From a virus, in the IMG/VR virus record IMGVR_UViG_3300047160_009070, positions 31,320 through 95,319 of that record: a stretch of DNA of 64,000 bases; one strand, written 5' to 3'. How positions within the stretch are numbered: the first letter of the stretch is position 1; the number at the start of each line of letters is the position of its first letter. This document shows positions 4,011 to 41,215 of this stretch, one piece after another. Made by a program: the position numbers and the translations under genes. The notes beneath the pieces are model-generated. The model saw only the letters and a program-made list of their open reading frames with translations. It had not been told where the DNA came from and searched no databases.

Positions 4011-7000
4011 ATGACAGAGTACCTTTGACCTCGGCGATGCCGTCCTCGAGTTCGACGGGGACATCGAGCCGCTCGCGAGGAAGGTCCAGGAAGCCCACCA
4101 GATGGTCAAGACCGGCCTGGACGGAATGGGCCGTGAGATCCAGGGCTTCACCGCACTGGCGATCCGTTCGGGGCAGGAGCTCGAGCTTGCGTACATCCAG
4201 CCGCTGAAGCGAGGCTTCGACGAGCTTTCGCTCGCCGTGTTCGCCTACCACGAGCGTCTGACCGGGGTGATAGGCGTCACGCACGAGGCTGCGGGCGCGA
4301 TGCTGCAGCTGGGTGCCGCGTCGTCGCAGATGGCGGAGCAGACCGTCCGTGCGCTCGCCGACGTGCGGGGTGCTGTGGAGAGCACGGCGCTGCTGATCAT
4401 CGCGGCTGCCCGCAGCGAGGTTGACGCGATCAACGAGGTGACGGCCGCGTATCTGCGCCAGGCGGCGGCTGCTCGTCTCGCGGGGGGCAGTGCCGGGGTG
4501 ACGCTCGCGGCGGGTGCGCTTCCGCTTCCGTCGTTGCGGGCGGGGGTTGCGCCGGCTGCTCTCGGCCCCGCCCCGGGGCAGCCGCTCGCCGGCAACTACC
4601 GGATTTGGGGTTCGCGTGGTGACGCCGCCCCCGGCTCGATGGTGAACCCGGTTGTGGTCGCGATCGAGTCCGGCCAGTACGCCGGTCTCGGCGCACGCGC
4701 CGCGGCGCTCGGGTTCACGGCGGGCGCCCAGCCGTCCGGGTCGATCCTCGATCCGGTCACCGCCCAGGCTTTGCGTGACATCGCGCAACGCCAGATCGCT
4801 GCGGCGCCGGCGTTGACGCCGGGGGAGATCATCACTGCCGCCAGGGCGCTGCCGCAGGAGGACCTGCGCCGGCTGGTGGGAATCCTGGACCGCCCGATCG
4901 CCGGCGGCGCCGGTCCACCGATCGACTGGCGGCCGGACCCGACGTTCCGGCGTGCCGTCCAGTCGGTTTTGGCGGGCGGTCCGTTCGCCGAGCCGAACGT
5001 GTCGGTGTCGGGTTTGCAGCGGTCGCTGCAACTGCAGTACACGCAGGCGCTCCAACTCCAGAGACAGCTTCAGCAGGTGGGTCTGATCGAGTTGCGGTCC
5101 GGCGGCGGGTTCCGGGTTGTTCAGCCGAAGGTGCAGGAGTACCAGCGCCTGATGTTCGGCGCGACCGGTCCTGCGTTCCCGGGCGCCAGCTATGGCCGTG
5201 CGCCGACGGGCGAGATGGCCGGGATACCGCAGCCGGCCGAGCGACTCGACATTTTCGGGGCGCTCGCCGAGCAGCAGGCTGCACAGGAGGCGCAGATCGC
5301 ACAGCAGCAGGCTGATCTCGCGAGACAGGAGGCGCAACTCGGCCGGCAGATGTCGCTGTTCGAGGGGATGGCCCGCCGCGGCGGGATCTGGCCCGGTGTC
5401 GTGGCCGCGATGGGTCCCGAGCCGCTCGGGCCGTACGGGCCCGTAGGCCGGTTCGCGTACCGGCCTTTGGGGGTTCCGGGTGAAGCCGAGACCGGGTATG
5501 AGGCTCTGAGGGCGGGTGCGACCGGTGCGACTGCCCGCCCGACGTGGATGGGCGGGACGGTCCTGCCGCCTGAGCCGACGGTCAAGATCGACGCTGCGCA
5601 ACTCGCGGCGCTTGAGGCTGCTCTGAAGGAGGGCCGGATCAGCCAGACGCAGTTCGATGCGCTGTCCTCCGCGCTCGCGCTCGGCGGCACCCCCGGTGCC
5701 CCCGGCGGGGGAGGCGGAGGCGGAGGGGTTCCCCCGGTGGCTGTCGGTCCACCCGGTGGCGGAGGCGGCGGAGGCGGCCGTGCCTTGTGGCCTTTGGCGC
5801 TGGCTGCTCTGTGGGGACGCCCGACTCTCGGCGCACGAATCCCGTTCACTCCGTTCTCGCTGCCGATGGCCGGGTTCGGAAGCCTCGGCTCGCTCGCCGG
5901 TCTCGGCCCGGAGCATTGGCTGATGACCGCTTTGGGGATCGGCGGGTTCGCTGCCGCCGGCGCCGCCGGCGCGGGTGCGATAGCGCTCGGTTCGGCTGGC
6001 ACGCTCGCGGCCGGTGCCGGCTCGAACGCGGCTGTGATGTCGTCGACGATCAAGGACACCCAGACGCTGTCGCAGGCGATGACTGCGGTGCAGACGGCGC
6101 AGCAGAACGTGGCGCAGTCCCAGGCCGCGTATGCGGCGGCGGTTCACCAGTTCGGGCGCAACTCGACGCAGGCGACAGCCGCCGCGAGCCAGCTGACGGG
6201 CGCCACCAACACGCTGACGACCGCCCAGCAGAACTACAACAGCACCGTCAGCCAACTCGGAGGCCCGCGCGCCCCGGGTGTGCAGGCGGAGATCCAGTTG
6301 GCGAAACAGACACAGGCGCTCAACAAGTTCTGGGACCAGCAGACGCAGATGGCCCGGGTCGCCGCGGTGCACGTGCTCGAGCAGGTGGTGCAGCTGGGTC
6401 ACGACTACGTGCCGCTGGTGGCGCAGGCGGCGCAGCAGAACCTGACGATCATCAACCAGGACATCAAACCGTTGTTCTCATGGCTCGAGGGTCCGCAGGG
6501 AAGAGGCATCTTCCTGCAACTCGAGGACCAGTTCAAAAGGACTCTGCCGACCGCGATCGACGCGTTCTCCAAGGCGATCGAGGTTGTGCTGCGGGTCACG
6601 CAGGTCGCGTCCCAGTACAGCGGCACGTTCGTCTCCTGGCTCGACAAGTTGGTGAACCGCTTCAACAGCATGTCGAACGTCCAGTTCGCGAACACGATCC
6701 GGCGGCTCGTCGGCGACTTCCGGGACTGGGAGAGGTTCGCGAAGGCGATCGCCACCGACCTGTATCTGCTGTTCAGCCAGGACGTCGGCACCGGCAAGTC
6801 GATCATCACCACGCTCACCACCATGCTCGAGCATCTCGGCAAGTGGGAGAGCTCAGTGAAGGGGCGCGAGGAGATCCGCACGATCTTCGACGTGCATCTG
6901 CACGAGGTGCAGGCGCTGCTCGGGATCATGCCGAAGCTGTTCGGCGTGTTCGGCCAGCTCTACATGACGTTGGCGCCGCCGCTCACCCAACTGATGACGC

Positions 7001-27868: not shown

Positions 27869-29065
27869 ATGGGTGAGAGACGAGCAGGCCGATCACGGCT
27901 GTGGGCTGGACGTCCCGGGTGCGGCGTGACCAGGCAGCTGTCGTTCACCGAGATCCAGACCGCTTTGACGTGCGAGGGACGCCACGCGTTCCAGTACACC
28001 GGCCGTCTGACCGGCGGCGAGACTCTGAAGCGTAAGCAGATCGCCGTGGAGCTTTCCAACGGCCGCGCCTGGGGTGCTGCTGTGGCTGCGTGGCACGGCT
28101 TCCCTGCCGACACGAGCCTGCTGGACGCCTACCGGCCCGTACTCGCCAAGCAAGCCGCCCACGAGGCGCTGCTGGCGTCCTACAGGCATGATGTGGAGGA
28201 GCAGCTCGCCGCCGGCGTGTGGGTTCCGGTGGAGGCACAGGTGGACCGCCAGACTTGGCTGGCGGAGATCCTCGACCATTACATGGCGACCGGCGTCCCG
28301 CTCGAGAATCTCACCAGGATCGAGGGTGGGTTCGATATGCCGCTGCCGTCCCGGACAGGCAAACGTGTGTCGACGGTGTACCGGTTCACCGGGTTTCTTG
28401 ACGGCTGGACGGTCCCGGCCGGCGGTGGGCATGCGCTGGTGGAGTTCAAGTTTCGCTCCCGTCTCACCCCGCCGGACCAGGTGCAGCTGTCCCGGCAGGT
28501 CCGCTGGTATGCGCTGGCGTTGCAGCGCGAGACGGGTGTGCCGGTGATCGGCGCGGTCCTGGATGAGCGTTTGGCGGAGCCGCCGAAGCCTCCGCGTGTG
28601 GTGCAGGCGAAACGCAAGGGGGAGGGTGTGGACGGCTGGACGGTCAGTCACGCCAAGGACCAGCTCACCACCCCCGAGCTTTATCTCGAGGCGTGCGGGT
28701 TGTTCGACGCCGAGCCGGAGCCCGACACACTCGATGCTCTGCGGACTCGTTTGTGGCAGCAGCGCCACCCGATTCTGTTCCGCCCGTCCGAGTTGGCTGA
28801 GGCGGAGCGCGAGTTGGTGTCGGCGGCGAAACTGATCCGCGATCTCGATTCGGGCGCCCGCTACCCGGTGCGTAACGCCCAGACGCAGCTGTGCCGCCGC
28901 TGCCGCTATCTCGAGGCATGTCCGAACCCGGACGACCAGTTTTATCTCGACACGCTCTACGAGCGCACTGTGCCGAAGAGGCTGCGTGCTCGAGAGGAGG
29001 AGAGCACCGGCGGGGGAACTCTGGCCCCTGGACCCCCCGCCGGCCTCTTCGCGGAGGCAGCATGA
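27869..29065 (+). CDS. Cas4/RecB-like PD-(D/E)xK exonuclease (start 27869 ATG or 27926 GTG)
   Basis: LSFTEI..ALTC, FTGFLDGW...LVEFK, QVRWYALAL, C-terminal CRRCRYLEAC Cys cluster. Confidence 0.8.
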   Translation: MGERRAGRSRLWAGRPGCGVTRQLSFTEIQTALTCEGRHAFQYTGRLTGGETLKRKQIAVELSNGRAWGAAVAAWHGFPADTSLLDAYRPVLAKQAAHEALLASYRHDVEEQLAAGVWVPVEAQVDRQTWLAEILDHYMATGVPLENLTRIEGGFDMPLPSRTGKRVSTVYRFTGFLDGWTVPAGGGHALVEFKFRSRLTPPDQVQLSRQVRWYALALQRETGVPVIGAVLDERLAEPPKPPRVVQAKRKGEGVDGWTVSHAKDQLTTPELYLEACGLFDAEPEPDTLDALRTRLWQQRHPILFRPSELAEAERELVSAAKLIRDLDSGARYPVRNAQTQLCRRCRYLEACPNPDDQFYLDTLYERTVPKRLRAREEESTGGGTLAPGPPAGLFAEAA

Positions 29066-29493
29066 TGGCCTACAACGACGTGAACTTCACTTGCTGTGTG
29101 TGCGGGATCGCGATCACGATGCCGGAGGGCCTGTATCAGCAGCGGGTGACGGATCACGGCGAGTTCTATTGCGTGAACGGCCACCGGCAGCGTTTCACCC
29201 AGAAGGACAAGAAGGAGCAGGAGATCGCCCGTTTGCGCGAAGAGGTGCGAGCCAGGGACTCGCTGATCGAGACTTTCCGTAGCGAGGCGAACGAATTGTG
29301 GGATGAGCGCGAGGGTTTGATCGCTTTGCTGCGCGAATGCCCGCTCTGTGATTGGCGCTCCAGCAAGCGCATCCCCCGGGGTGGTGTTCGTGCCGGCGTT
29401 GAGCGTGTCCACCAGCAGTTGGTCGACCATTTGGCGCACGACCACGGGCTGCCGGTGCCGCAGGAGCAGCGTCTTCTGGAGGCGGGGGCGTGA
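29062..29493 (+). CDS. Zn-finger/coiled-coil hypothetical protein
   Basis: CCVCG...FYCVNGH...CPLC; RBS GGAGG. Confidence 0.6.
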   Translation: MMAYNDVNFTCCVCGIAITMPEGLYQQRVTDHGEFYCVNGHRQRFTQKDKKEQEIARLREEVRARDSLIETFRSEANELWDEREGLIALLRECPLCDWRSSKRIPRGGVRAGVERVHQQLVDHLAHDHGLPVPQEQRLLEAGA

Positions 29494-29957
29494 GCTCCAC
29501 CCGCCATGGCGTGTCCGGCAAGTGGGACGGCCTCATCGAGGAGCGCGACCGGCTGAAGGACCAGGTGCAGGGCCTGAGCGATCATGTCGAGCGTCTGGTG
29601 GAGGAGTGCGACAGGCTGCTGGACGCCAAGGAGCTTCAGCTGCACGAGCTACGCGACCTGCTTCGGGACCAGCCGAACGAGGCTTGGGCGACTGTTTCGG
29701 GGACGGTGGAGGTCGCTCAGCGTCGTGTGGAGGAGGCCGAGGCCCGCGCCGACATCCGGCCTGACAGCGACGAGCAGGAGGCGCTCGACGCTTTGCAGAG
29801 CTACATGGCGGTGGTGGTGCACCGCTGGAAGCTCCGCGCCAACCAGGGCGAGTTGCTCGCCGCTGTTCACACTCTGCAGGGCGCTGTCCAGCAGCACCTG
29901 CTTCACCGGATCGCCCCGAACAATTGGGCTAGCTGGTGGCAGGAAAGTTCACCATGA
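29490..29957 (+). CDS. Coiled-coil hypothetical protein
   Basis: GTGA-coupled; heptad-rich. Confidence 0.55.
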   Translation: MSSTRHGVSGKWDGLIEERDRLKDQVQGLSDHVERLVEECDRLLDAKELQLHELRDLLRDQPNEAWATVSGTVEVAQRRVEEAEARADIRPDSDEQEALDALQSYMAVVVHRWKLRANQGELLAAVHTLQGAVQQHLLHRIAPNNWASWWQESSP

Positions 29958-29991
29958 GCGATCCGTTGAGGCGGAGAAGGGACGGAATCTG

Positions 29992-30793
29992 ATGCGATTC
30001 GTGGACCGACCGGGGCCTGCTAGACCGAACATTCTGATCTACGGGCCCCCGTAAGGAACCAAAGGTGGGTAAGACGGCGGGTGCGTGCTCGTCGGGTTTG
30101 GGAACGATCCTGTTCAACCTCGATCTCCCGAACGCGACCCGTTATGCCCGTTCCAAGAAACGCGATCCGGACGGCAGGGTGATGGAGGTCGAGTTGCCGC
30201 CGTTCGAGGAACGCAAACTCCCGGTCTTCGATCTGATGGGCGAGATCTCCCGGTCGGTCGCCGATCCGCGCCAGGAGGTGGCGGAGGTGGTGGTCACCGA
30301 CCCGATGGGCGAGCTTTACCGGCGTCTGCTGGAGGAGGTGTCGAACCGGTCGATCCATCCGACGTTCGATCACCGGCTGTGGGTGACCACCCAGATCGAG
30401 CGTTACTGCCGGTTCCTGTGCGAGCTGCCGACCATTTCGGCGATCTTCGTGTGCCACGAGCTTCCGGTGAAGGACGAGTCGACCGAGTCGTTCGAGCGGT
30501 TGCCGTTCACCGGCACCACCAACATCAATCTCGGCGCCAAGTTGATGTCGATGGTGGATGTGATCGCCTACGCCGGCGTGTCGGTGCAGGAGAACGGCGC
30601 GAAGGAGTACGGTGCCCAGTTGATCATCGACCAAGGGCGCCGCGGCGGGGACCGGTTCGATTGTCTGGGGGACTATCGCCCGCTGGATTTGAAGGACTGG
30701 TTCGCGGCGATCGCTGGGGCGGAGGTTGCCGATCTCAGCGCTGAGACCAGTAGCGAGGAGCCTGCCGGGAAGCCGGTGGCGGAGGCGGCGTGA
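29992..30793 (+). CDS. AAA_24/Sak4-like ATPase interrupted by a 10-nt stop-containing gap (30052-30061) inside Walker A
   Basis: MRFVDRPGPARPNILIYGPP* then, in the +1 frame, KVGKTAGACS...VVVTDP...IFVCHE...MVDVIAY; joining gives GPPKVGKT. Confidence 0.8.
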
Positions 30794-40678: not shown

Positions 40679-41215
40679 ATGCGGAACTTGAAGGTGTGGG
40701 CGCTCGTCGCGCTGTTTCTGGCGGCGATCGTGATCGCGAACTTGACGTTGACGAACTTCGGCCCGGGGTGGATTCTCCCGAACGCGTTCTTTCTGATCGG
40801 CCTGGATTTCATCACCAGGGACCGGCTCGCCGATTTTTGGGGGACGACACGGTTCGCGAAGATGGCGGTGCTGATCGCCGCCGGCGGCGCCCTGTCCTAC
40901 TGGTTGAACGATGACGCCGCGAAGATCGCGGTCGCGTCGACGATCTCGTTCTGCGCGGCAGAGTTGGTGGAGGCGGTGAGCTATCACGTGCTGCGTCACC
41001 AGCAGTGGGAGGACCGTGCACCGAAGGCCGCGTTGACCGCGGCGATCGTCGACTCGATCCTGTTCCCGACGCTGGCGTTCGGGACGTTCGTGTTCACGGT
41101 GAGTTTCGGCCAGTTCTGCGCGAAGTTGGCGGGCGCCACGTTCTGGACGTGGGTGGTCGCCAGGGCGATGAGAGCTCCGTCGGTCGCGCCGACGGTGCCG
41201 GCAGAGGCGATGTAA
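40679..41215 (+). CDS. yhhQ: VUT/YhhQ-family queuosine-precursor (preQ0/preQ1) transporter
   Basis: AIVIAN...IGLDFITRD...IAVAS..SF..AELVE...VDSILF..LAFG...GQFCAK; multiple TM segments. Confidence 0.8.
   Translation: MRNLKVWALVALFLAAIVIANLTLTNFGPGWILPNAFFLIGLDFITRDRLADFWGTTRFAKMAVLIAAGGALSYWLNDDAAKIAVASTISFCAAELVEAVSYHVLRHQQWEDRAPKAALTAAIVDSILFPTLAFGTFVFTVSFGQFCAKLAGATFWTWVVARAMRAPSVAPTVPAEAM

Follow-up and report, generated by a model that had tools for sequence, protein, structure and literature searches.

The DNA analysed here (hereafter the window) is the final 64 kb (64,000 nucleotides, nt) of the IMG/VR virus record IMGVR_UViG_3300047160_009070, which is linear, 95,319 bp long and 66% G+C, with an estimated completeness of 82%. 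It contains a gene that, judged from its sequence, probably encodes an AAA_24/Sak4-like recombination ATPase, for which we propose a functional product although the reading frame is broken by 10 nt inside the Walker A motif (P-loop). Positions 30040-30076 read TAC GGG CCC CCG TAA GGA ACC AAA GGT GGG TAA GAC G. A short open reading frame (ORF) extends from ATG 29992 to TAA 30052-30054, ending at 30054, and its product, MRFVDRPGPARPNILIYGPP*, has the tail ...ILIYGPP. A long ORF lies in the +1 frame, with GTG 30065 as its first start codon and its end at 30793, this frame being open from 30038. An earlier reading of the same DNA (the original prediction) had described this sequence, the short ORF ending in GPP* and the continuation in the +1 frame, all of which were confirmed in the letters and in the ORF list. 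The features of the site are as follows.

29992..30051, + strand: first coding segment of 20 codons (MRFVDRPGPARPNILIYGPP), which covers beta-1 together with the front half of Walker A and matches the N-termini of homologs in alignment.
30012..30049, + strand: 5' hairpin GGGGCCUG.CUAGA ... UCUAC.GGGCCCC, its 3' arm reaching as far as base 1 of the take-off codon.
30049-30051, + strand: candidate take-off codon CCG, the last codon of the first segment.
30052..30054, + strand: in-frame UAA stop, the proposed slow A-site codon and the first three bases of the insert.
30052..30058, + strand: UAAGGAA, the seven bases that would be skipped undecoded in a hop, including the Shine-Dalgarno (SD)-like AAGGA at 30053-30057.
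30059..30061, + strand: proposed landing codon CCA, synonymous with CCG and in the frame of the remaining gene, giving a joined product colinear with the family.
30062..30793, + strand: second coding segment, which resumes at AAG (K of GPPKVGKT) and runs to TGA 30791-30793 with no further stop or frameshift.
30065..30067, + strand: GTG, where translation might alternatively reinitiate, 7 nt downstream of AAGGA; its product (MGKT...) would be without beta-1 and half of the P-loop.

The long ORF matched phrog_124 (Sak4-like single-stranded DNA annealing protein) with an E-value of 3.4e-8, and 79 homologs of it were found in a large protein collection, with a top identity of 64% and PF13479 (AAA_24) in nearly all. 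A Pfam search with the two window pieces taken separately gave no match at E ≤ 0.01, and blastn and tblastn searches against a phage collection gave none either. The Walker A signature Gx4GK[ST] appears in the window gene only when the 10 nt are skipped: passage from CCG 30049 to CCA 30059 gives GPPKVGKT, which is found as such in the homolog P0055. Deletion of one 10-nt block beginning at 30049, 30050, 30051 or 30052 yields CCC CCR AAG GTG GGT AAG ACG, again GPPKVGKT; the four registers are equivalent because CC is present on both flanks.

Joining 29992-30051 to 30062-30793 produces a 263-residue protein that aligns with the family from end to end, including the N-terminus, exemplified by MKFVDRPTGPPKPNILLYGPPKSGKTAGACS (MKFVDRP...NILLYGPP) in P0003. 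Further decay of the gene was looked for and none was found, since the 243 codons downstream are intact and the joined protein retains 15/15 invariant columns of the family alignment A1. Gx4[GA]K[ST] follows beta-1 directly in 68 of 80 family proteins, the remaining 12 being N-terminally truncated calls or having a different residue at one motif position, and a length change at this point was observed in none of the 80. The restoration of the P-loop by the skip, as originally claimed, is thus borne out by colinearity with the family and by this constancy of length. Within the family, the second Walker A glycine is replaced in P0029, P0047, P0066, P0078 and P0041 (GPPKTRKT, GPPKTKKT, GPPKTWKT, GPPKTAKT); with these substitutions, some members of the AAA_24 family may bind ATP differently or not at all.

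Part of the locus is present in 23 soil-metagenome runs, and Logan contigs from four of them were compared with the window. Two contigs span the insert with 0 mismatches and 0 gaps: X4 record 19 (446 nt, 29947-30392) and X2 record 6 (206 nt, 30033-30238). The 10 nt are therefore real DNA, the same in contigs from two other runs and samples, in agreement with the earlier view that a sequencing error is unlikely. Among the Logan contigs of the four runs, at a depth of about 3x, none was without the insert.

The improbability of the pattern was assessed by simulating random inserts, composition-matched to the gene and placed in the gap-less gene. In 2.8% of trials a stop was the first codon to be altered, in 5% a landing codon arose that matched the first two bases of the take-off codon with exact resumption of the frame, and in 0.2% both occurred jointly. 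The combination of stop and landing codon exceeds chance, as had been argued when the site was first described. CCA 30059 is also the earliest CCN after the take-off codon. Of the three stop codons, TAA is used least often in the whole record (TGA 56, TAG 24, TAA 6, at 86 predicted gene ends among 87 crude gene calls). The transfer RNAs (tRNAs) encoded by the phage are Gln(CTG) at window 41109-41203, Met(CAT) at L010:10483-10555 and Arg(TCG) at L011:5229-5300, and among the tRNAs of the whole record there is none for Pro, Thr or Leu.

About 50 homologous loci, of which about 40 include the N-terminus, were compared in all frames with a full-length homolog. Frame breaks were observed in 2 of the ~40, in each case in the P-loop only, and the other loci were in a single frame. 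The two interrupted homologs are listed below.

L041:781-1555, contig Ga0187786_10020168 (1760 bp): a distant AAA_24 homolog with a 7-nt insert at the same PP/K junction.
L032:1014-2217, contig Ga0183260_10008115 (8175 bp): a homolog with an 8-nt insert one codon earlier in the P-loop.

L041 reads TTG TTG TAT GGG CCT CCG [AGAGTCG] AAG TCT GGC AAG ACG (YGPP / KSGKT), and L032 reads TGC TTG TAC GGC [AGACC GGC] GCT CCT AAG ACC GGG AAG AGC (LYG / APKTGKS), the displacement in L032 being +8 between identical GGC codons. Both joined products are full length and colinear with the family, and the remainder of each gene is intact. The zero-frame first codon of both inserts is AGA, which accounts for 8 of 6697 family-gene codons (1.2 per 1000). 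In L041 the landing codon UCG would form two Watson-Crick pairs and one G-U pair with the Pro anticodon, a weaker match. Neither gene has a start codon able to reinitiate a P-loop-bearing product. The original prediction had looked to homologs for inserts at this site that keep its Pro-stop-SD-Pro pattern; inserts in the same P-loop were indeed found, but both open with AGA in place of a stop, and no SD is present in either gap. In a gene of about 250 codons, the three frame breaks are confined to a stretch of four, and each opens with a stop or a very rare codon. On these alignments, clustering of this kind is not what random decay looks like.

Two further family proteins start inside the P-loop: P0054 (MRLKSGKTT), and P0095 (VSKTGKTT), which is present on 36 JGI contigs. 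These may be additional interrupted genes, as yet unconfirmed; P0095 as a query gave no match in IMG/VR or the genome collection. P0063 (= L003) and P0098 were considered as interruptions and rejected, because these genes are intact and only their starts had been miscalled.

The same phage has two other candidate sites, one of them upstream of the window.

L009:947-954 (genome 14446-14453), before the window start: DUF5131 gene, with 5 nt interrupting its Cx6Cx2C motif (ACT TGA CC).
4011..4029, + strand: start of the tape-measure gene, ATG ACA GAG TAC CTT TGA C, a 5-codon ORF after a strong SD.

The first DUF5131 ORF ends ...CFKVSQGCT-TGA, the DNA being ACT TGA CCC ACT GC. Its 28-residue N-terminal piece matches positions 2-25 of Pfam PF07505, and the downstream piece, read from ACC, matches positions 26-221 from its second residue on, so that the profile is colinear only when 5 nt are skipped (ACT to ACC, a +5 hop). 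At the tape-measure gene, the long ORF lies in the +1 frame and has no start codon for 25 codons (until ~4102); over 4027-4101, 23/25 codons of this frame have G or C in the third position, which is typical. The frame would be restored equally by a +1 slip (CUU to UUU) or a +7 hop (CUU to CUC). In the ATPase, DUF5131 and tape-measure genes alike, the first downstream codon cognate to the take-off tRNA lies in the protein-restoring frame. A whole-genome scan for an SD, a short ORF, a stop and a landing codon within 12 nt singled out only the DUF5131 and tape-measure sites, the ATPase site failing its SD filter; the scan is too noisy to limit the number of sites to three.

RNA structure was analysed by folding ~63 nt ending just past each take-off codon and comparing the result with 200 shuffles. 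The window hairpin has a centroid energy of -19.4 kcal/mol and a z-score of -1.67, with 12/200 shuffles folding as well. Stronger values were obtained for L041 (z -5.1, 0/200), in which the 3' arm consists of the LLYGPP codons, for L032 (z -2.4, 4/200), and for the g7/8 site of the phage Hau3 large terminase gene, a published bypass candidate (z -4.1, 0/200). In the window, L041 and L032 the 3' arm of the hairpin ends at the take-off codon in each case; in the same ~63-nt view no such hairpin was seen at DUF5131 or at Hau3 g6/7. As a control, the matching 60 nt of 33 uninterrupted homologs were folded, giving mean pairing probabilities over the last 9 nt of 0.20-0.80, compared with 0.98, 0.89 and 0.80 for the interrupted genes (window 0.80), which rank 1, 2 and 3-5 of 36 in pairing of the take-off region. 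This ranking is only suggestive, because the measure was chosen after the first fold had been seen, and the predicted folds are in that sense suggestive of a hairpin shared by the three interrupted genes. A hairpin with its 3' arm inside the paused ribosome forms only if the messenger RNA (mRNA) is pulled through. The 5' stem-loop of T4 gene 60 has been proposed to exert such a forward pull (bioRxiv 10.1101/2024.12.09.627546).

Two likenesses to gene 60 that had been proposed or expected for the site did not hold. Folds of 30040-30100 and 30052-30140 gave z-scores of -0.45 and +0.13, with no structure 3' of the take-off codon, so that a hairpin of the gene 60 type at that position is absent and the one present lies on the 5' side. 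AAGGA had been taken for a mini-SD like that of gene 60, but it is 1 nt from the landing codon, which is too close (6 nt in gene 60). It sits inside the gap, and there is no SD 5' of the window take-off codon. Its stated spacing of 7 nt from GTG 30065 proved correct and is ideal for reinitiation. An Rfam search of the site gave no family match.

A Cas4-like exonuclease gene (phrog_1218) adjoins the ATPase gene on its upstream side in nearly all loci. In L032 the two are separated by 1.3 kb containing an HNH_3 endonuclease gene (PF13392, E 1.7e-10), the end of which overlaps the ATPase start codon in a layout resembling mobA/gene 60. L041 has no intercalated gene between exonuclease and ATPase. 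In the window, 0.93 kb lies between them and holds two lineage-specific ORFs (29062-29957), which no other of the loci compared has; one ORF encodes a zinc-ribbon protein (phrog_33336), and the other has no PHROG family and sub-threshold Pfam matches only (Sec2p, TetR_C_13). These two ORFs gave no nuclease signal, and searches of the 95-kb record turned up neither HNH_3 nor HNH; a homing endonuclease beside the window gene was looked for in this way and not found. An origin of the gaps in nuclease immunity is a lead only, because it rests on one of the three cases (L032).

Taken together, these observations point to a +10 hop of peptidyl-tRNA-Pro over UAA as the most likely mechanism by which the gene would be read. 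In its favour, the joined product lines up exactly with the family, the DNA is real, the gene is otherwise intact, the geometry is that of Hau3, and there are two sister sites in the phage and two gaps in homologs. The core of the original prediction, a hop from CCG over UAA to CCA, is in this respect the best fit to everything that could be tested, and we consider it probable on this comparative evidence. In the proposed pathway, a ribosome with the 20-residue nascent chain on peptidyl-tRNA-Pro would pause when CCG 30049-30051 occupies its P site and UAA its A site, and take-off would compete there with termination. The tRNA would then unpair and the mRNA slide by 10 nt, possibly aided by re-folding of the 5' hairpin at 30012-30049, in which the beginning of the take-off codon forms part of the 3' arm. 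Re-pairing would occur on CCA 30059-30061, the first CCN met, followed by restart of decoding at AAG to give ...ILIYGPPKVGKT..., and the tryptic junction peptide expected from the hop product is FVDRPGPARPNILIYGPPK. Ribosomes that terminate would release the 20-residue peptide, and some may reinitiate at GTG 30065. The yield of the hop is probably low or conditional, and the gap would therefore be an expression throttle or a tolerated scar. It may have originated as an insert destroying a nuclease target in the conserved P-loop DNA, like the T4 gene 60 gap.

Several points weigh against this interpretation. The hop product is predicted here from DNA alone. Sak4-type genes are generally non-essential, and a dead copy could therefore persist for some time. 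At a depth of about 3x, a minority allele without the insert may exist. No close relatives were found of this phage (in IMG/VR, with the large terminase TerL as query) or of L041 and L032 (in the collections), and P0007 gave no match among genome contigs, leaving conservation of the gap and purifying selection without a comparison set. The window hairpin taken alone is not significant (z -1.7), the position of AAGGA suits reinitiation better than landing, and both the hairpin measure and the class of 'slow codons' were picked after the data had been seen. Known short stop-hops are inefficient and were described in synthetic constructs (PMC5009743), and the UAA construct of Hau3 gave a mere faint band in E. 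coli (PMC10732093).

One alternative is that the gene is dead, the 10-nt insertion having inactivated a dispensable recombination gene, with no full-length protein made and the stop and matching codon coincidental. The frame is broken as early as codon 21, there are no relatives to show that the gap is conserved, and inactivation could have been selected, for instance as an escape from a host defence that senses the protein; sak genes are reportedly named for mutations that let lactococcal phages escape AbiK abortive infection, their loss or alteration being selectable. However, a dead gene would not be expected to keep every invariant residue and show no second lesion in 243 codons, and a stop with a matching landing codon arises in only ~0.2% of random inserts. 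The pattern moreover recurs in the DUF5131 gene of the same phage and in hop-compatible form in L032 and L041, the three frame breaks of the family all fall within four codons of ~250, and the same device is found in the tape-measure gene, which is essential to any tailed phage. Inactivation therefore appears unlikely. Termination at UAA followed by restart at GTG 30065 through AAGGA, with a 20-residue peptide and a 242-residue MGKT... protein as the working product, accounts well for the local layout, AAGGA being 7 nt and the stop 10 nt before the GTG, as is usual for coupled genes. Its product, however, would be without beta-1 and the GPPK half of Walker A, the spacing of which is fixed in all full-length family proteins retrieved, and the GTG is the Val codon of KVGKT, which P0004 and P0055, both of them intact, also have. 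No start codon lies close to the gap of L032, and the sole ATG of L041 is out of frame (MGLRESKSGKT), so that reinitiation is not a general solution; for the window gene we regard it as distinctly improbable.

A +1 frameshift at CCC-C or CCG-U would read the insert through, giving GPRKEPKVGKT or GPPKEPKVGKT with three extra P-loop residues. The +1 frame is open from 30038 and CCC C is a shift-prone sequence. Against such a shift, no member of the family changes length between beta-1 and GK[ST], tRNA-Pro would re-pair poorly on CGU at the stop, a shift on CCC C would be needed one codon ahead of the pause, and an equivalent shift would lengthen the L041 product by 2 residues and that of L032 by 3. 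In Hau3, Antonov et al. could not exclude a +1 shift from sequence alone, but mass spectrometry of g6/7 showed bypassing instead (PMC10732093). For the window gene a shift is very improbable. Least credible of all is an assembly error, or removal of the insert at the RNA level through splicing, editing or transcriptional slippage. The window comes from one metagenome-assembled record, but two independent run assemblies carry the insert exactly, and the absence of an Rfam match speaks against RNA-level removal. An intron was rejected, 10 nt being far too short for group I or group II, as was transcriptional slippage, there being no A/T run. A different genetic code was rejected because the frame changes.

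If the +10 hop is nevertheless what happens at this site, it belongs to a class of events that is almost unknown in nature. Natural short ribosome hops have hardly been described, and the Hau3 terminase is the sole published candidate for a 10-nt bypass. The present case would add a natural stop-gated candidate in a different gene family, with two sister sites and two AGA-gated homologs, forming a comparative series. Genes in phage metagenomes that are annotated as broken or N-terminally truncated would then really be intact, and the decoding speed of stop or rare codons would control phage recombination, tail and other genes. More tentatively, and with rather less confidence than in the hop itself, selection may repeatedly favour short coding gaps as a device in high-GC soil phages, each made up of a slow A-site codon (a stop or a very rare sense codon), a 5-10 nt gap, a re-pairing landing codon and a 5' hairpin into which the take-off codon is drawn. 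It would be present in at least three genes of one phage and would have hit the AAA_24 P-loop independently at least three times, the gaps being kept as breaks in nuclease targets and later throttling or conditioning expression. In that scenario, the likely reason is that homing or defence nucleases aim at the best-conserved DNA of a gene, and an insert disrupting such a target would be retained only if ribosomes hop over it.

In Hau3, the large terminase gene contains two 10-nt inserts starting with UUA (Antonov et al. 2023, PMC10732093), and the related prophages of Strep C.1 and S. catenulae each contain a single insert of either 10 or 7 nt (PMC10732093); the coding gaps of phiHau3 and the prophages were described by Smith et al. 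2013, as cited in PMC10732093. The full-length Hau3 product was observed in Streptomyces, and with the UUA of g6/7 changed to UAA, a junction peptide detected by mass spectrometry proves bypassing in E. coli (PMC10732093). The original prediction was thus correct in stating that short bypassed inserts have been proposed in Streptomyces phages. Read from JX182369, the two sites are GGC [TTACTCC] GGT AAG and TCT [TTAACGG] TCC ACG, both +10. The window site, CCG [TAAGGAA] CCA AAG, has the identical +10 geometry, with a frame-breaking 10-nt insert, a slow first triplet, a synonymous landing codon as the last triplet and resumption at AAG. The two systems also share flanks colinear with uninterrupted homologs and a high-GC soil phage of actinobacterial type as carrier; a 5' stem-loop near the take-off codon is predicted in the window as well, though weakly. 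In contrast, the window has a natural UAA stop in the A site in place of a bldA-dependent UUA, which makes the link to the Streptomyces life cycle inapplicable. It also differs in the gene, an AAA_24/Sak4-like ATPase and not a terminase, in the take-off tRNA, Pro and not Gly or Ser, in the two additional sites of its phage, where the hop lengths are different, and in the AGA gating of hop-compatible gaps at the same loop of distant homologs.

The synthetic stop-hops of Weiss, Dunn, Atkins and Gesteland (1987) in E. coli, as given in a review (PMC5009743), were of +5, +6 and +9 and of low efficiency. They resemble the present case in the matched codons around a stop, the unpairing and re-pairing a few nt downstream and the slow A-site trigger, and differ from it in that here the gene is natural, the displacement +10 and a stimulatory hairpin possible. 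According to the same review, no natural in-frame stop-hop is known (PMC5009743). The Byp elements of Magnusiomyces capitatus mitochondria (Lang et al. 2014, as cited in PMC10732093) are mobile, GC-rich and 27-55 nt long. They share with the window phage the presence of multiple frame-disrupting inserts in one genome and jumping between matched codons; the inserts of the window phage, however, are of 1-10 nt and unrelated in sequence, and the ribosome is bacterial as opposed to mitochondrial.

T4 gene 60 is bypassed in association with a MobA homing-endonuclease cassette (bioRxiv 10.1101/2022.08.31.505936; PMC5462505), and its 50-nt gap belongs to the mobA HNH cassette and shields the phage from the nuclease (bioRxiv 10.1101/2022.08.31.505936). 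As in gene 60, the take-off codon of the window site is directly followed by a stop, the landing codon matches it, the site falls early in the gene, and a 5' stem-loop is predicted, though weakly. It differs in having a gap of 10 as opposed to 50 nt, no 3' take-off hairpin, no identified nascent-peptide signal, and 1 nt in place of 6 between the SD-like element and the landing codon. An HNH gene directly upstream, as with mobA, is found in L032, whereas no endonuclease gene adjoins the ATPase gene in the window. If the hop and its proposed origin are correct, the connection between nuclease targets and translational bypassing, so far seen only in T4 gene 60, would gain a second and much simpler system.

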